From a virus: a stretch of DNA of 17,493 bases. A program made the translations under genes and the position numbers. Of the stretch, positions 2-17,493 are shown piece after piece. Under the pieces are notes generated by a model. It ran no database searches. It had not been told where the DNA came from and worked only from the letters and a program-made list of their open reading frames with translations. The stretch lies in IMG/VR virus record IMGVR_UViG_3300045988_124991; one strand, written 5' to 3'. The stretch's first letter is position 1; each line of letters opens with the position of its first letter.

Positions 2-607
2 ATGAATGGAATTACGAATTGGTTTCAAAACATCGACATGGGTGACCCGAACTGGGTCATGGCGATTTGCGCAATATTGACAATCATCGGTGGGGCGGGC
101 GCGTTCATCGTCAAAAAACTTATTGGCCTCGTTAGCAAAGCGTCCCGGAAGGAAACACCAGCGGAAGGGCCTGCGACGCCAATCACGAATGACGAAATAG
201 ACGCCATGTTTCCAGCAACAACGCCGGCAACTCGCAAGCCACCCATGCCGCCCATGCCGCCCAAGTTCAGAATCGACATCGACGAAAGCGGGTCGCGCTT
301 CGTCCTTACCAACATCGGAGGCCCCGCGCGCAACATCTCCGTGTTTGCCGAAGCGGTCGAGGGAACCTACACGAACACATGGAACAACTATCTCGGAAGA
401 ACCGATAGCGAACCATGGGGGCTGCCCGACGTCCACTTCTTCAACATTGAACTGCCGAAACTGCGAGAGGAACGTCAACAAGGCGGCACCGCGTTCTTTG
501 ACGGACACGTGGAGGACGGGGACGGCAAAGCCCATTACCCCATCAAATTCACCATCGTCTGGGACGGATGCCCTGAACCCGTGGAGATCATTAAAACCAT
601 CAACTAA
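2..607 (+). CDS. Membrane-anchored protein of unknown function (candidate prophage-expressed exclusion/defence protein)
   Basis: 201 aa. It has one hydrophobic helix (WVMAICAILTIIGGAGAFIV) followed by KK..K.SRK, which suggests positive-inside topology. A Pro-rich linker (TRKPPMPPMPPK) and a ~110-aa C-terminal domain follow. Visibly lower GC than the structural genes. The strand is opposite to its neighbours. A TAGATT hexamer lies 7 nt upstream of the ATG (17363-17368). Confidence 0.7.
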   Translation: MNGITNWFQNIDMGDPNWVMAICAILTIIGGAGAFIVKKLIGLVSKASRKETPAEGPATPITNDEIDAMFPATTPATRKPPMPPMPPKFRIDIDESGSRFVLTNIGGPARNISVFAEAVEGTYTNTWNNYLGRTDSEPWGLPDVHFFNIELPKLREERQQGGTAFFDGHVEDGDGKAHYPIKFTIVWDGCPEPVEIIKTIN

Positions 608-800
608 CATCCGGGGCCTCCGTAATCCGGCCCGACAGCGCTTCGCCAAGCTCGTCGCGCAACGCTTCGGCCTCGGAACGATCCAGAGGAACAACGAGGT
701 TCCCCACAGAACCGGCACGAGAGAACTCGACGAAGAACACATCATGGCAATGCGCCAGACGGCTCACATGCACCGACACACGTTCCACGCCAGCCATCAC
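600..800 (-). CDS. Hypothetical small protein (66 aa), co-transcribed with the cro-like XRE gene
   Basis: The start overlaps the upstream stop (GTGATG context at 795-800). Moderate GC3. The sequence pattern resembles the 64-aa product of 16829..17023. Confidence 0.5.
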   Translation of the reverse strand: MMAGVERVSVHVSRLAHCHDVFFVEFSRAGSVGNLVVPLDRSEAEALRDELGEALSGRITEAPDVS

Positions 801-1003
801 GCCACCTCCAATGGCTCTCGGCCAAGCACGAAATCGGTGGAAACGTCGAAGAAGTCGGCTATACGCGACACGTCACGCAACGTGAAATTTGAGCGGCCAT
901 GGAATTTGTCGCTGATGGCCTGCTCGGAGACGCCCAACTCATGCGCCAGATCGCGCTGTGTGACGTAATTGTCTCTCATGAGTTTTCTTATCTGACTAAT
1001 CAT
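797..1003 (-). CDS. XRE-family helix-turn-helix regulator (cro-like, heads the leftward/lytic transcription direction)
   Basis: 68 aa with a typical XRE HTH (VTQRDLAHELGVSEQAISDKFHGRSNFTLRDVSRIADFFDVS). Divergent from the second XRE gene across an AT-rich 100-bp region. An alternative ATG lies at 979. Confidence 0.8.
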   Translation of the reverse strand: MISQIRKLMRDNYVTQRDLAHELGVSEQAISDKFHGRSNFTLRDVSRIADFFDVSTDFVLGREPLEVA

Positions 1004-1111: not shown

Positions 1112-1528
1112 ATGACAATGCTAGATATTCAGCCGAGCGCTACATTGCGCAGGCAGGACGTTGTTGCGATGAATACGAACATGATCTTGTCCAACAGCGG
1201 TTTAATGAAGAAGGACCTTGCTAAGGCAATGGGGCTCTCGCCGCAATCGATGGCGTCGAGGCTTCAGAGCAAGGCCGATTGGACCATTGACGAAACTTGC
1301 GCGGCGGCCGATTTCTTCGGCGTCCCGTTGATGGCTTTGCTGGATGAGAACTTAACGCCAGCAAAAGCCATGGAATATATAAAAAACCGCCGTTCCGATA
1401 ATGGGAACGACGGTCAATTGGTAGCGGGGCATGGATTTGAACCATGGACCTCTGGTAACGTCGTTGCCCAGAGGTCCACGGTTCAAATCCATGAAGCCCG
1501 ATTATTTGATTTTATCCTAGCGGCGTAA
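1112..1528 (+). CDS. XRE-family HTH repressor-like protein (cI-like), phage-encoded form ending ...FDFILAA; its 3' end contains the attP core
   Basis: HTH LMKKDLAKAMGLSPQSMASRLQSKADWTIDETCAAADFFGVPL. The ORF track starts at 1103; 1112 is preferred because of the TAAAAT-N7-ATG geometry. Codons from 1418 onward run through the tRNA-fragment core and the inverted repeat. Confidence 0.75.
   Translation: MTMLDIQPSATLRRQDVVAMNTNMILSNSGLMKKDLAKAMGLSPQSMASRLQSKADWTIDETCAAADFFGVPLMALLDENLTPAKAMEYIKNRRSDNGNDGQLVAGHGFEPWTSGNVVAQRSTVQIHEARLFDFILAA
1419..1455 (-). other. attP core: 3'-terminal fragment of a tRNA (variable-loop/T-arm/acceptor/CCA), not a complete tRNA gene
   Basis: The minus strand reads CCAGAGGTC-CATGG-TTCAAAT-CCATG-CCCCGCT-A-CCA. 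This is a perfect 5-bp T-stem, a GGTTCAAATCC T-loop, a 7-nt acceptor strand, a discriminator A and CCA. No matching 5' acceptor, D-arm or anticodon arm follows. It lies 92 bp upstream of int. Confidence 0.75.
1430..1493. repeat. 26-bp inverted repeat (25/26 match) with 12-nt spacer, built from the tRNA T-arm sequence
   Basis: The left arm 1430-1455 (catggatttgaaccatggacctctgg) is the reverse complement of the right arm 1468-1493 (ccagaggtccacggttcaaatccatg), apart from 1444/1479. The spacer is taacgtcgttgc. A U-rich tract (gattatttgatttt) follows. Confidence 0.9.
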
Positions 1529-1546: not shown

Positions 1547-2386
1547 ATGCCGGCCGTGAGTATGCACAAAAAGCTGCCCCCTGCTCAGTGGCGGGACGAA
1601 ATCACCCTATGGCTCGAATCGCTCACGGCGGCGGGCCTCAGTCAGGACACCGTCAACACGCGGCGGTGCAAGATAGGCCACGCGGCGCGGTGCCTGGATA
1701 AATCGCCCTATGACGTGACGTCGGAGGATCTAGTGCATTGGACCGCCTCGCAATCATGGAAGGCGGAGACGCGCAAGGGCTACCGAAACACGCTCGTCGG
1801 TTTTTTCCGGTGGCTGCATGCCACGGGCCGGCGCGCGGACGATCCGGCCGCCGTGCTGCCGAAGGTGCGCAAGACGCGGCCGCATCCCCGCCCGTGCCCC
1901 GACGTGCACATATACGCTGCCATGTGCGCTGCGAACGATGTGGAACGGCTCATGCTGCGCCTCGGTGCCGAAGCCGGGTTGAGACTGTCCGAAATCGCGG
2001 CCGTCCACTCGCGCGACGTGCTGGAAGGCGACGCCGGCCCGTCGCTGATAGTGCGGGGCAAGGGCGACAAACAGCGCATAGTGCCCATAAGCGAAGACCT
2101 GGCGAAGCGGATAACGGCCGCGCCCGGTTGGCTGTTCCCCGGCCGGTGGCGGGGACACGTCGAAAAATCGTATGTGTCCCGCCACCTCACACGGCTGCTG
2201 CCGGACGGTTGGGGGCCGCACTCGCTGCGCCACCGGTACGCCACGCGCATGTACGAGACCACGCACGATCTGCTGCTGGTCTCGAAACTGCTGGGACATA
2301 GCAGCGTGGAGACCACGCAAATCTACGTGGCGATGCCGGACAGCCGTCTGCGCGTCGGTCTGGACGCGGTGACGTTGGCCGGCTAG
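1547..2386 (+). CDS. int: Tyrosine recombinase / phage integrase (short, XerC/D-like, no obvious arm-binding N-domain)
   Basis: 279 aa with catalytic-type motifs: AEAGLRLSEI (box I Arg), HSLRHRYAT (H-x-x-R) and LGHSSVETTQIYV (His/Tyr). Adjacent to attP. An alternative ATG lies at 1562. Confidence 0.9.
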   Translation: MPAVSMHKKLPPAQWRDEITLWLESLTAAGLSQDTVNTRRCKIGHAARCLDKSPYDVTSEDLVHWTASQSWKAETRKGYRNTLVGFFRWLHATGRRADDPAAVLPKVRKTRPHPRPCPDVHIYAAMCAANDVERLMLRLGAEAGLRLSEIAAVHSRDVLEGDAGPSLIVRGKGDKQRIVPISEDLAKRITAAPGWLFPGRWRGHVEKSYVSRHLTRLLPDGWGPHSLRHRYATRMYETTHDLLLVSKLLGHSSVETTQIYVAMPDSRLRVGLDAVTLAG

Positions 2387-3536: not shown

Positions 3537-3776
3537 TCAGTCGTCGTGGTCGAAAAGGTTTTCAGGGGGTTCGGGCGGCGGTGGCCCCAATCCCTTGTAG
3601 ATGTGGTCAACCAGCTGTCGGTTCCATTGCCACAGCAGCGCGTTGTCGGCCTGCATCTGCTGCGCGAGCCGGTACGCTTCCATACGGTCGCGTGCCGCCG
3701 TCACGAGCTGCTGCGCGAACGCGCCGGCGACGACGCCGACAGCGCCGACTATTGCGATGATTACGTTCTCGGTCAT
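3537..3776 (-). CDS. Small membrane-anchored protein in the lysis cassette (possible second holin / lysis accessory)
   Basis: 79 aa. N-terminal hydrophobic helix (VIIAIVGAVGVVAGAFA), then a helical region and a Pro-rich acidic tail. Strong SD AAGGAG 3-4 nt upstream of the ATG. Directly upstream of the endolysin. Confidence 0.6.
   Translation of the reverse strand: MTENVIIAIVGAVGVVAGAFAQQLVTAARDRMEAYRLAQQMQADNALLWQWNRQLVDHIYKGLGPPPPEPPENLFDHDD
3762..3767 (+). promoter_or_regulatory. Candidate -10 hexamer (TACGTT) for a leaderless antisense transcript
   Basis: TANNNT, then a 7-nt spacer (ctcggtc), then ATG at 3775. The geometry is identical to 1099 and 17363. Confidence 0.35.
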
Positions 3777-4074
3777 GATCTCCTTTCATCGGGGGTGTGG
3801 TTCACAGGGTTATGAGTCCGGCACGTTCAGCGGACAGACGAACGGCGACGCCGTGGCGGAAATCTCGTGGAAGTCCCACACGACCAAACCGGCGGGCATG
3901 GTCGTCACGAGACTGCGAATCGACAACCAATCCGACGATTCCACGGTGTACATAGTGCCTTACCTGTGGTCCCTGCGACCCGGTTCGGCATGGGTGCGGT
4001 TCCGCAACAACCTCATGAACACGTGGGCCACGACGTACCCGGTGAGTTTCTGCTGGTTCGCCTGGTGGGACTAG
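3775..4074 (+). CDS. Hypothetical 99-aa protein encoded antisense to the late operon, between tail-tip and lysis genes (moron-like)
   Basis: This is the only frame open across 3786-4070. By my hand count, third-codon-position GC is ~85-89% from ~3817 to 4070. The phase-sharing minus frame is broken by TAA at 3960-3962 and 3810-3812. Alternative starts are GTG 3853 and ATG 3898. The stop shares CTAG with the convergent tail gene. Confidence 0.4.
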   Translation: MISFHRGCGSQGYESGTFSGQTNGDAVAEISWKSHTTKPAGMVVTRLRIDNQSDDSTVYIVPYLWSLRPGSAWVRFRNNLMNTWATTYPVSFCWFAWWD

Positions 4075-4760
4075 GCGAACGTCACGCCGGCCGGTATCGG
4101 CAGCGTTCGCGGCGTGTGCAGGCACCTGTCGTTGACCGCCATGCCGCCGATTACCGAAACGCTGCCGTCGGTGTTCCACTTCGCCTGTTTCGCGAAGTTG
4201 CTGCCGGGAATGGACCAGAGACAGCCGAGACTCACGGCCCTGGATGGCTTCGGCCCTGATGCGTAGTGGAAGACCGGGAAACCGGCCGACAGCGACACGG
4301 TGCTTTTGAAGCCGCTCAGATGCACGTGCAGCAGGCGGTTGGCCCTGTCCACGACGATTTCCATTCCGCCGCCGTAGGAGTCCGGCTGGAAACTGCCGGT
4401 GTTCTGCCAGGTGAATTTCGCGGACTCATAACCCTGTGTCAGTTGGTTCCGCAGACTGTCAAGCATGGCGCCGGTCGCGTAAGGGAGCCACGCGGTGCCG
4501 TTGTAGTAGTACGGGCCGTTGTTCGCGGTCGTCGTGTCGGCGGTCACGTAGCCGGTCTGGCCTGTCACGCCGGTTTGCGCCGCCAATGCCTCGAGCGTGG
4601 TAGCGATGACGGGTTTCACGCCGGCGGGCGTGTTTCGTGAATCAACCTCGGTCAATGCGGTTTCGATGCCCTCGGCCATGGTCTTGAACTGTGCTGGCGC
4701 GCTTGACACGAGGTCGTCGGCCTCGATGTAGGGCAGGCCGTAGATCGGTGTGGTTTTCAT
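4071..4760 (-). CDS. Minor tail protein / candidate receptor-binding (tail fibre-like) protein
   Basis: 229 aa. The N-terminus MKTTPIYGLPYIEADDLV is a motif I recognise from actinophage minor tail/fibre proteins. SD GGAGGAA upstream. ATGA overlap with the preceding tail gene. It is the last gene of the tail module. Confidence 0.65.
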   Translation of the reverse strand: MKTTPIYGLPYIEADDLVSSAPAQFKTMAEGIETALTEVDSRNTPAGVKPVIATTLEALAAQTGVTGQTGYVTADTTTANNGPYYYNGTAWLPYATGAMLDSLRNQLTQGYESAKFTWQNTGSFQPDSYGGGMEIVVDRANRLLHVHLSGFKSTVSLSAGFPVFHYASGPKPSRAVSLGCLWSIPGSNFAKQAKWNTDGSVSVIGGMAVNDRCLHTPRTLPIPAGVTFA

Positions 4761-6286
4761 GGTTCCTCCGTGATGGTGGTTGGTTGCTGGTAGCGGGTGA
4801 CGAGAGAGAGTTCGGCGAGGGTGAGCGCGCACTGCCTCCATATGGCTGGCCATGCTCCCATGCTCGCCCAGGTAATCGCGGTCTCGGCGGCTACGGGTAG
4901 TGGCCAGAGTGTGACCTCGTTGCGGAGCAACGGCCGCCCGCTCGACCACTGGTAGGTGAGCGTGCCGCCGATGGTCGCCCACGCGCCGCCCGTGGCGGAT
5001 ATGCCGTCGTCGCCGGTGAGACGTGACGACGTGGCGCCCTGGATGACGAGCGGCCCGGAACTGGCGGTGAGATACAGGCGCGCGTGCGTGGCCGGGTCCA
5101 GCTTGCGGCCGTCGAACACCACCGTTGCCGGCCGTAACCGCCGGTCGATGGTGACGAGCAGTCGGGCGAACGCGTCACGATCCGCGTCGGTCGGGGCCCA
5201 CACGCTGCCGCCCGCGCGGCCCCATACGCCGCCCGACTCGTCGGCCGTCACCACGTCGGCCTCAACGGTGACGCTGGATTGCGTGGCCTTCAGGTTCGCC
5301 GGCAGCCGGCCCATGTCCGTCAAAGCAGTTTCGTGCTGGTCGAACTCAAGCGCGCCGTCGGACGCTTTCGCTGTCTTGCCCTGAATAACGAACTGGGTGA
5401 CGGGTTCCGGGATCGTCAATGATTGTTCGGCGTCGGTGATGACGTCGGCGGCGTCCAGGCCGTCCAGCGTCTCGCCCGTCCAGTCGGTCACGGTAAGTCG
5501 GGCTGTGTCGTCGATGCCGATGCTGGCGGGCGCGCCGAACGGCATGTAGTCGATGCGGCTCGCGTCGCGGTCGGGGTATTCATACCACAGCGGCCACATT
5601 CGTGAGTGCGCGTAGAGACGGTGGAGCAGGGCGAGCTGTGACGGGTAGTCGTCGGTCCGGTAGGGTGCCACGGATGCGGTGATGGGGAGACCGTTGGCGT
5701 TGGCCTGCGGCGCGTCCGCCTCCCCGGCACGTCGGTTGAGCTCCGTCAATCGTTCGGCCATGGTGCCGACCCAGTGCAGGCCCGTGTAGCGTGCGTCGGA
5801 CGAGATGGGCCCTTGTTTCTGCATTCTTTTCCACAGGATCATGCGGCTGGAGGCGCTGAGTTCCAGTAGCCAGCCGTCGCCGTGGTGCCGGGTTTCGCCG
5901 CCGTTCTGCACCAGTCCGTCGAACAATGTCGTCGCCGTGCTGGACTTGCCGGACGGGTTTCCGGGCGTGTATGCCTGGTGCATCGCGTCCAAACGCATGC
6001 GCTGCGCCGACCATGCGCCCATGTCGTCGCGGAGCATGCCCCATGTGGGTTGCGCCGAGATCTGCACGAGCACGCGCGCGCCGGCCAGGGTGAGGGCGCG
6101 GCCGGTGAGCCAGCCGGTCGAGTCGCGTAGCCGGAACGTCATCACGGACGGGTCGGGCTGCTGGTCGATGCCGTCGGTGCCCCACTGGATGCTGAAGCCG
6201 TCCAACGCGGCCACGTCGTTGTCGTGGTCGTTGACGGCAACCCAGCCGTCGCCCCAGTCGAGGAACATGAAACACTGCTGCGCCAC
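4757..6286 (-). CDS. Minor tail protein (distal tail/tip protein)
   Basis: ~509 aa from GTG 6286 (GAGG SD 6 nt upstream, TAGTG overlap with the TMP stop), or 503 aa from ATG 6268. It immediately follows the tape measure gene. The upstream part of the 625-aa track ORF is an out-of-frame shadow of TMP. Confidence 0.7.
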   Translation of the reverse strand: MAQQCFMFLDWGDGWVAVNDHDNDVAALDGFSIQWGTDGIDQQPDPSVMTFRLRDSTGWLTGRALTLAGARVLVQISAQPTWGMLRDDMGAWSAQRMRLDAMHQAYTPGNPSGKSSTATTLFDGLVQNGGETRHHGDGWLLELSASSRMILWKRMQKQGPISSDARYTGLHWVGTMAERLTELNRRAGEADAPQANANGLPITASVAPYRTDDYPSQLALLHRLYAHSRMWPLWYEYPDRDASRIDYMPFGAPASIGIDDTARLTVTDWTGETLDGLDAADVITDAEQSLTIPEPVTQFVIQGKTAKASDGALEFDQHETALTDMGRLPANLKATQSSVTVEADVVTADESGGVWGRAGGSVWAPTDADRDAFARLLVTIDRRLRPATVVFDGRKLDPATHARLYLTASSGPLVIQGATSSRLTGDDGISATGGAWATIGGTLTYQWSSGRPLLRNEVTLWPLPVAAETAITWASMGAWPAIWRQCALTLAELSLVTRYQQPTTITEEP

Positions 6287-17136: not shown

Positions 17137-17346
17137 CTACAGATGGCGCGCATGCTTCGCCTCCCTGATGGCCCTGGCAATCTCACGATTGACCGTCACC
17201 AACTCACCCATCGACAACCCATCCACGTCCAACAACTGCCCACGGATGTCCGCGAGGACATGGAAACGATAAGGATTGCCACCATCGGTCACCCTGCAAA
17301 ACACGTCAAACGTGTCGCTGGTGGACTCAGGCTTCAGATACGGCAC
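17137..17346 (-). CDS. Hypothetical small early protein (69 aa)
   Basis: GTG start at 17346 with SD GGAGG 6 nt upstream. It is the first gene of the long minus-strand series after the switch region. Confidence 0.6.
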   Translation of the reverse strand: MPYLKPESTSDTFDVFCRVTDGGNPYRFHVLADIRGQLLDVDGLSMGELVTVNREIARAIREAKHARHL

Positions 17347-17362
17347 GAGACACCTCCGGTTG

Positions 17363-17368
17363 TAGATT
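17363..17368 (+). promoter_or_regulatory. Candidate -10 hexamer (TAGATT) for a leaderless transcript of the membrane-protein gene
   Basis: TANNNT, then a 7-nt spacer (gaacgtc), then ATG at 17376. No SD is present. The same geometry occurs at 1099 and 3762. Confidence 0.4.
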
Positions 17369-17374
17369 GAACGT

Positions 17375-17493
17375 CATGAATGGAATTACGAATTGGTTTC
17401 AAAACATCGACATGGGTGACCCGAACTGGGTCATGGCGATTTGCGCAATATTGACAATCATCGGTGGGGCGGGCGCGTTCATCGTCAAAAAAC
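17375..17493. repeat. Terminal direct repeat identical to 1-119 (circular closure / assembly overlap)
   Basis: Read directly: 17375-17493 (catgaatggaattacg...cgtcaaaaaac) equals 1-119. It contains the ATG (17376) and first codons of the CDS annotated at 2..607. Confidence 0.95.

Follow-up and report, generated by a model that had tools for sequence, protein, structure and literature searches.

In bacteriophage lambda, the messenger RNA (mRNA) that is transcribed from promoter PRM and encodes the CI repressor is leaderless (PMC10491246). A TAnnnT hexamer precedes 97% of the start sites of Corynebacterium glutamicum, in which 33% of the mRNAs are leaderless (PMC3890552), and about 15% of the transcription start sites of Bifidobacterium pseudolongum are leaderless (PMC4782308). 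Promoters of B. breve are of the TATAAT/TTGACA type, and positions 1, 2 and 6 of the -10 box matter most (PMC5746004). Here we analyze a viral DNA of 17,493 nucleotides (nt), IMG/VR record IMGVR_UViG_3300045988_124991, which we call the window and in which a repressor gene and a membrane-protein gene each have a TANNNT hexamer 7 nt before their ATG start codon, and we weigh the evidence that these hexamers are -10 elements of leaderless transcripts.

The closest described phages are Bb423phi2, 689b-1 and Bl-1, which have genomes of ~18 kb and integrate at a transfer RNA (tRNA) gene, tRNA-Met. For this family, integration-dependent immunity has been proposed, and Bb423phi2 has been described as differing from 689b-1 by an inversion of ~500 bp in the tail region, at CAGGGTTA (Mavrich et al. 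2018, PMC6109161). The same paper remarks on the missing dedicated invertase, reports no evidence for excision or induction of prophage Bb423phi2 in culture, and contains neither the word "promoter" nor the word "leaderless" (0 occurrences). The original prediction for the window, made from its letters, was that three plus-strand genes share the TANNNT-N7-ATG geometry, lack a Shine-Dalgarno (SD) sequence, and together form a prophage-expressed leaderless regulon distinct from the SD-led lytic genes of the minus strand. We consider it likely that the observations as a whole are best explained otherwise, namely by two sigma-A-type -10 elements that give rise to leaderless mRNAs, a third site that is a chance match, and a contrast between the strands that reflects operon position.

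Hexamers before the repressor and membrane-protein genes

The three TANNNT-N7-ATG strings are all exact. On the plus strand, TAAAAT (1099-1104) is separated by spacer gaatttc from ATG 1112 of the repressor gene, TAGATT (17363-17368) by spacer gaacgtc from ATG 17376 of the membrane-protein gene, and TACGTT by spacer ctcggtc from ATG 3775 of an antisense open reading frame (ORF) of 99 codons (string 3762-3777). The first two hexamers are putative -10 elements, that at 1099 being assigned to the repressor promoter P_rep. It was also correct that these starts lack an SD sequence. The calculated energies of the duplexes with the anti-SD sequence are +0.3 kcal/mol at 1112 and -2.9 kcal/mol at both 17376 and 3775, and the mean at background positions is -3.5 kcal/mol.

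What did not hold is that three such matches are unlikely to arise by chance. The window contains four occurrences of TANNNT-N7-ATG, each of them on the plus strand; that at 5661, the fourth, precedes an ORF of two codons. Dinucleotide shuffles contained 1.5 +/- 1.2 matches, and at least four were reached in 16 of 200 shuffles. Because this raw count is not significant, the case rests on which ATGs were matched, i.e. two real first-cistron starts, and on conservation. The true plus-strand genes are those encoding the membrane protein, the repressor and the integrase, so that the proportion having the geometry is corrected from three of four to two of three, ORF 3775-4074 not being an independent gene (see below).

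The repressor gene (1112-1528, plus strand; PHROG transcriptional repressor) encodes an immunity repressor with an XRE-type helix-turn-helix (HTH) motif, whose viral form of 138 residues ends in ...FILAA. It is a first cistron, preceded by a divergent intergenic region of 108 nt. The repressor ORF opens at an in-frame ATG, 1103, that lies inside the hexamer, and ATG 1112 follows nine nt further on. What is conserved across repressor alleles of 44-99% protein identity is the ATG that has ACN as its next codon (Met-Thr), the equivalent of 1112, and the upstream ATG is frequently missing (L050, for instance, reads TTAGTGGTT there). Since ATG 1103 is not conserved and the ATG-ACN of the 1112 type is, the predicted true start of the repressor is ATG 1112 and not ATG 1103.

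Of 32 distinct upstream sequences retrieved from IMG/VR, 29 have a TANNNT hexamer 6 or 7 nt ahead of an in-frame ATG; the other three are a partial match, a variant with a deletion, and an allele whose spacer is 12 nt long. The same geometry was found at 11 loci of a genome collection. Eight of these belong to named Bifidobacterium species (B. biavatii, B. santillanense, B. cebidarum, B. phasiani, B. imperatoris, B. olomucense, B. moukalabense and B. amazonense) and three to metagenome-bin contigs labelled as other genera. The scan of this collection, in which a single repressor protein was used as query, gave mostly matches to antisense tRNA-Met and about 15 real repressors. To compare spacings, upstream sequences were grouped into 27 promoter families (less than 80% upstream identity) and an identical procedure was applied at every spacing from 0 to 20. 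The hexamer was present at spacing 6 in 9 families and at spacing 7 in 16 families (25/27 together), and peaks were obtained there only; minor peaks at 1, 13 and 18-19 arise when this hexamer is measured from other in-frame start codons nearby.

Within the repressor hexamers only T1, A2 and T6 are invariant, the three central positions and the flanks being variable (TAAAAT, TAATAT, TAAATT, TATAAT, TATTAT, TATCAT, TACAAT, TAGTAT, TATGCT, TAATCT and TATACT). Several alleles also have a -35 box at a distance of 16-17 nt (TTGCAA-N17-TAATAT, TTGCAA-N17-TAGTAT, TTGCAA-N16-TACAAT and TTGACC-N17-TACAAT). The start codon linked to the hexamer is ATG in every repressor allele, never GTG or TTG. In this region, CTAAAC and GGCGTGT/ACACGCC motifs recur across alleles around the -35 region of P_rep; they are candidate operators.

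The second gene encodes a membrane-anchored protein of 201 residues. The first 119 bases of the window are exactly identical to its last 119 bases, showing that the contig is circular with a unit of 17,374 bp. The ORF that starts at 17376 (17376-17493, 5' part) is therefore the 201-residue ORF at 2-607 (plus strand, full length). The protein has one hydrophobic helix, which is N-terminal, a linker rich in Pro and Thr, and a C-terminal domain of about 115 residues that is conserved; it matched no Pfam or PHROG entry, and a scan of the genome collection with the membrane-protein alignment found nothing. TAGATT-N7-ATG is kept in relatives whose protein is 66-70% identical and whose N-terminal transmembrane segment differs (L018-L022). 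In one of these, L019, the upstream sequence is wholly unrelated and the similarity begins at the TAGATT hexamer. The geometry is kept as well in L245, which encodes a 50% identical protein in a different prophage background. The spacers of the membrane-gene lineages differ (gaacgtc, gatgggc, gatggac and gaattac).

Together, the absence of SD sequences and the retention of hexamer and 6-7 nt spacing in diverged relatives argue for a leaderless reading at both genes, and translation of the repressor and of the membrane protein very probably begins at the respective mRNA's first base. RNA polymerase would begin on the A of ATG 1112 and on that of ATG 17376, or no more than one base away from it, and ribosomes would load through the 5'-terminal AUG instead of an SD site. 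In predicted folds of both transcripts the 5' AUG is unpaired. P_rep would express the repressor, and the TAGATT promoter would express the membrane-anchored protein. We infer transcription starts and leaderless translation from geometry and conservation only; expression in the lysogen and the function of the membrane protein are likewise inferred.

Several observations weigh against this reading. No full -35/-10 promoter was detected at these two sites by a consensus scan that required at least 9 matches out of 12, and neither site has a good -35 box; this negative result reflects weak -35 boxes and not the absence of a promoter. With a spacer of 7 nt, transcription could begin one base ahead of the A, and the mRNA would then have a leader of 1 nt. 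The relatives are homologous and not independent, so that the counts given above overstate the statistical weight of conservation. In addition, some homologues start differently. A few repressor homologues are SD-led (L172, L173, L238, L176-178 and L183), L086 has a 12-nt spacer, and SD plus leader are found in B. callimiconis, B. vansinderenii and B. tissieri (GGAGGGA-N7-ATG) and also at Gardnerella and Alloscardovia loci. Likewise, a 45% identical homologue of the membrane-protein gene (L247/L248) has AAGGAAGGAAGA as an SD instead of the hexamer. The leaderless-type design, as judged from these upstream sequences, is thus frequent among homologues and not obligatory, and the presence of SD-led members in both gene families means that lineages have switched between two modes of initiation. 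The SD-led repressors are about 31-33% identical (L172, L173 and L238, near 2480), the corresponding value for the membrane gene being 45% (L247/L248, 2501).

Could the hexamers merely reflect AT-rich intergenic DNA, the genes being expressed as leadered mRNAs from upstream promoters and translated by SD-independent initiation, for example of an A/U-rich, protein S1-assisted kind? The non-significant motif count (4 versus 1.5 +/- 1.2), the weakness of the -35 boxes in the window and the 48% GC of region 1001-1500, which raises the chance rate, are all compatible with such an explanation. It does not account, however, for the constant spacing of 6-7 nt shared by 25 of the 27 diverged repressor families, for invariance confined to T1, A2 and T6 while the NNN and flanks vary, for the proper -35 boxes at 16-17 nt in several alleles, or for a start codon that is always ATG. 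Moreover, the membrane-protein gene, which is also a first cistron, is separated by only 29 nt (17347-17375) from the GTG of a divergent gene of 69 codons, and this gap leaves no room for a separate intergenic promoter upstream. We consider this explanation unlikely.

The conserved block before the membrane-protein gene extends beyond the hexamer. It consists of the octamer TAGATTGA, which is identical in all lineages and could also, or instead, be a protein-binding site. Generalized to both genes, this would mean that the conserved elements, TAGATTGA above all, are mainly sites for a regulator (repressor or Cro operators, or a host factor) and not -10 boxes. Identity of TAGATTGA in four diverged lineages, the NNN included, goes beyond what a -10 element requires, and the switch region has other repeated operator-like motifs. 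On the other hand, the repressor hexamers show the free variation at NNN that is seen in -10 boxes and have no sequence in common with TAGATTGA, of which the switch region of the window contains no second copy. A dual function, finally, would not contradict a leaderless mRNA. A role mainly as binding sites is in our judgement distinctly improbable.

As to the other strand, the statement that most minus-strand genes are SD-led or coupled proved accurate. Starts for 22 minus-strand genes were assigned from the phase of the GC content at third codon positions (GC3), from tiling and from the SD, and 15 of them have duplex energies of -8 kcal/mol or lower, a level reached by 5.5% of background positions; 15/22 is an upper bound, since SD strength was used to choose among ambiguous starts. 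Four other starts abut or overlap an upstream stop codon. All of the unambiguous minus-strand starts (8367, 3776, 3521, 2646, 17346 and 800) have a strong SD.

Only the first cistron of a transcript can be leaderless. Almost all minus-strand genes are internal cistrons, and the strand contrast in SD usage follows largely from this operon position. It is better read as a difference between first and internal cistrons than as a separate translation regime for lysogeny. The proposal of a lysogeny-specific leaderless regulon set against SD-led lytic genes failed at two further points. The cro-like lytic gene, whose start is at 1003, also lacks an SD (-3.2 kcal/mol) and has no TANNNT at 6-7 nt, and the integrase gene is a second cistron, co-oriented with and directly downstream of the repressor gene, with a weak SD-type start and without the TANNNT-N7 geometry.

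Beyond operon position, this bifidophage family may have been selected for leaderless synthesis of the repressor (together with the integrase when the phage is excised) and of the membrane protein, an idea that we regard as improbable. Leaderless mRNAs are translated without SD recognition. If the idea were true, lysogenic functions could continue to be made, or be made preferentially, in host states where SD-led lytic translation is poor, and the balance between lysis and lysogeny would depend on how translation is running in the gut host. The changes between leaderless and SD-led starts that recur in both gene families would then mark lineages that differ in this coupling.

The third match and the invertible tail-fibre segment

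The TACGTT string at 3762-3777 is the antisense of codons 1-5 of a conserved, SD-led minus-strand gene of 79 codons. ATG 3775 is the middle of tCATGa, in which CAT 3774-3776 is the start codon of this gene, and the hexamer is the antisense of its codons 4-5. Homologues of the 79-codon gene that are 82%, 77% and 43% identical have lost the antisense motif. The conservation of hexamer and spacing in relatives that had been proposed as a check therefore holds for the repressor and membrane-protein genes and not for 3762/3775, and the same division applies to the -10 reading. A real promoter at 3762/3775 was excluded, as the geometry is not conserved, shuffles produce ~1.5 chance matches per window, and the ATG overlaps the start of a minus-strand gene.

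The original prediction took the hexamer as support for the reality of ORF 3775-4074 (plus strand). The part of this that stands is that the ORF looks coding: its GC3 is 0.80-0.89, even where the minus frame that shares its wobble positions has stop codons, and it has coding periodicity and a protein-like composition. It is, however, not a gene with its own promoter. Its plus-strand frame is already open from 3601, and the ORF is rarely called as a gene (two small clusters among 5.8 billion). Its coding character is explained by its being, from about codon 10, a silent alternative C-terminus of the tail-fibre gene located inside an invertible segment. The first nine codons (MISFHRGCG) lie outside the cassette.

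The segment comprises 636 bp (3803-4438) and contains an expressed and a silent C-terminal cassette of the tail fibre. It is flanked by inverted arms of 44 nt (3803-3846 and 4395-4438) that include a perfect 18-nt core, CACAGGGTTATGAGTCCG, at 3803-3820 and 4421-4438. The tail-fibre gene (4071-4760, minus strand; SD GGAGG, -9.5) encodes a receptor-binding-type protein of 229 residues whose C-terminal part lies in the segment, one of the inverted repeats being within the ORF. In one relative (L109) 3803-4438 is inverted at 99.5% identity with both flanks collinear. A second (L112) has the same junction, with 3803-4104 inverted at 100% up to the end of the locus. In L112, L113, L114 and L116 the 99-residue sequence follows tail-fibre residue ~98 in frame and on the same strand, and L113 has two diverged inverted copies.

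These data bear directly on whether a true lysogeny-specific leaderless regulon of three or more members exists, with ORF 3775-4074 as an independent prophage-expressed gene. In its favor, the three strings are exact, the ORF has coding periodicity and protein-like composition, and the four motif matches all lie on the plus strand. Yet the 3762/3775 string is explained as the antisense of a conserved gene and vanishes in diverged homologues, and the body of the ORF joins the N-terminus of the tail fibre in frame where 3803-4438 is flipped. Once the segment is inverted, translation from ATG 3775 would enter another sequence. Moreover, gene calls for this ORF are extremely rare in a very large database, no SD precedes the cro-like lytic gene, and the integrase gene is not of the leaderless kind. 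We consider such a regulon extremely unlikely, and favor a chance match at 3762 besides two -10 elements.

Minus-strand readings of 3777-4070 (read-through or extension of the tail fibre, and an ORF of 47 codons) were rejected because the wobble-sharing minus frame has stops, and minus-strand ORF 3802-4179 was rejected as a gene because its GC3 phase is wrong. Pfam and PHROG searches revealed no invertase next to the segment, the sole recombinase domain in the whole 17.4-kb genome being that of the integrase (1547-2386). Either the integrase or a host enzyme must therefore flip the segment. Repeat core GGGTTATGAGTCC and attP core GGATTTGAACC bear a weak apparent resemblance to each other.

Switch region, attachment site and phage identity

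Divergent from the repressor gene is a cro-like HTH gene of 68 codons (797-1003, minus strand; Pfam HTH_3 and HTH_26, PHROG regulators). Its alleles have hexamers at 6-7 nt that lack T6 (TAATAC, TATGAA, TAAATA and TAGAAA; TGAAAG in the window), and a conserved TTTAGT is located 14 nt upstream in the window. A gene of 66 codons (600-800, minus strand) is coupled to it and has a strong SD (GGAGGTG, -13.8 kcal/mol). A repeat search detected three direct copies of TC(T/A)GAC(T/C)AA(A/T) at intervals of 23-24 nt in the stretch that separates the cro-like start from P_rep (991-1051); from their sequence and position these are candidate operators.

The attP core (1420-1457, minus strand) corresponds to the 3' end of tRNA-Met and lies inside the 3' part of the repressor ORF. 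Positions 1420-1456 agree exactly with the published attR of Bb423phi2/689b-1 over the first 37 of its 39 nt (PMC6109161), and the antisense tRNA-Met match recurs across Bifidobacteriaceae genomes. A tRNA scan of the window found no tRNA gene, just this 3' fragment, and an Rfam search of the window gave no match. Directly 3' of the tRNA-Met fragment, and within the repressor ORF but on the other strand, is a hairpin of 12 bp followed by a T-run (1385-1415, minus strand), which probably is a phage-supplied terminator for the reconstituted tRNA gene.

Repressor proteins of viral forms (the window, L049 and L069; 138-147 residues) end in ...ILAA, and those of integrated forms (115-117 residues) end in ...GHGFEPWTSGL. 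The ...FILAA end of the viral repressor is ssrA-like. Downstream of the repressor lies a tyrosine integrase gene (1547-2386, plus strand; 279 residues from ATG 1547; Pfam Phage_integrase, 1.4e-20; PHROG integrase). GTG 1556 is preceded by AAGGA-N8 and aligns with the MSM start of the L069 allele, and from these features it is most likely the start, in preference to ATG 1547. The arrangement, i.e. attP in rep, a tag on the viral repressor, the integrase gene downstream and a divergent cro-like gene, matches the layout of integration-dependent immunity, and the window carries a predicted cassette of this type. By analogy, the tag would direct proteolysis of the viral repressor. In the circular form P_rep would probably express the integrase too, as in BPs-type systems (PMC3694055), and integration at the attP core would both separate the integrase gene from P_rep and strip the ...ILAA degradation tag from the repressor.

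The first gene of the long minus-strand block is the 69-codon gene divergent from the membrane-protein gene (17137-17346; GTG start), whose SD (GGAGGTG, -13.3 kcal/mol) falls inside the 29-nt gap. Its transcript must consequently begin inside or beyond the membrane-protein gene on the opposite strand, and the lytic transcript would then be fully antisense to that gene. The membrane-protein gene has the cro-like genes on one side and the early genes on the other, and is antisense to both. Such a position is usual for prophage-expressed exclusion or defence genes, and its location suggests that the membrane protein may have a function of this kind.

In its gene content the genome corresponds to a small temperate siphovirus. 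Besides the cro-like gene and the coupled 66-codon gene, the minus strand consists of one long block that runs from 17346 down to 2383. Its early part encodes small early proteins, an excisionase-like HTH protein and an HNH protein, and its structural and lysis part encodes portal, protease-capsid fusion, tape measure, tail proteins, tail fibre, a 79-residue membrane protein, endolysin and holin. An ORF of 479 codons without family match occupies the position of the terminase large subunit. Whole-window megablast against the GenBank phages of INPHARED gave no match, and identification was hence based on IMG/VR relatives and the literature. IMG/VR contains hundreds of relatives from human-gut metagenomes, many of ~17 kb. 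Given the 119-bp terminal overlap and the tRNA-Met attachment match, the window is the complete, circular, excised genome (viral configuration) of a tRNA-Met-integrating Bifidobacterium phage of the Bl-1/689b-1/Bb423phi2 type. Circular assemblies such as this one suggest that the Bb423phi2-type family does excise in nature.

Comparison with known systems

The mechanism proposed here is not new, the leaderless cI transcript of lambda and the abundant leaderless genes of actinobacteria being textbook examples, and the phage family, its integration-dependent immunity and the tail-fibre inversion have already been published (PMC6109161). What is added are corrections to the annotation, with the repressor predicted to start at 1112 instead of 1103 and ORF 3775-4074 being a silent tail-fibre cassette, and a promoter map. 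The upstream sequences suggest that most repressor alleles of a widespread group of Bifidobacterium prophages of the human gut use a -10 box that abuts the ATG. Phage genetics in bifidobacteria is still poorly developed, and the map provides concrete sites at which to study or engineer the control of lysogeny and prophage surface or exclusion functions in these bacteria.

The invertible segment resembles the G segment of Mu with Gin, the C segment of P1 with Cin, and the Rin shufflon of bifidophages in that inverted repeats are located in the tail-fibre gene and after a silent, oppositely oriented C-terminus, and in that both orientations occur in nature. Unlike these systems, the window has no dedicated invertase beside the segment. 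With Bb423phi2, 689b-1 and Bl-1 the window shares the attachment core, the genome size, integration-dependent immunity with an ssrA-like viral tag, and the inversion at the same sequence (PMC6109161). In contrast to Bb423phi2, for which excision was not seen in culture, it represents an assembled circular excised form.

Like mycobacteriophages BPs and Brujita, the window has a predicted rep-int operon transcribed from P_rep, a divergent cro gene, attP inside rep, and a C-terminal tag that integration would remove (PMC3694055, PMC4557955). It differs from BPs in the placement of the operator: ORep of BPs lies downstream of P_rep, overlaps its transcription start and is proximal to gene 33 (PMC4557955). 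With ORep in this place, a leaderless P_rep is not evident in BPs.

The two genes that have the hexamers share with the leaderless genes of actinobacteria both the geometry, a TANNNT about 6-8 nt before AUG or GUG, and the lack of an SD. Those genes are chromosomal and have mapped starts, whereas the case made here rests on conservation within a phage family. Finally, P_rep resembles PRM of lambda in that it would express the maintenance repressor of a temperate phage from a start predicted to coincide with the AUG, without an SD and divergently from a cro-side promoter. It differs from PRM in host phylum and repressor family, and in that it probably also drives the integrase gene when the phage is excised, the attP site being located inside the repressor gene itself.

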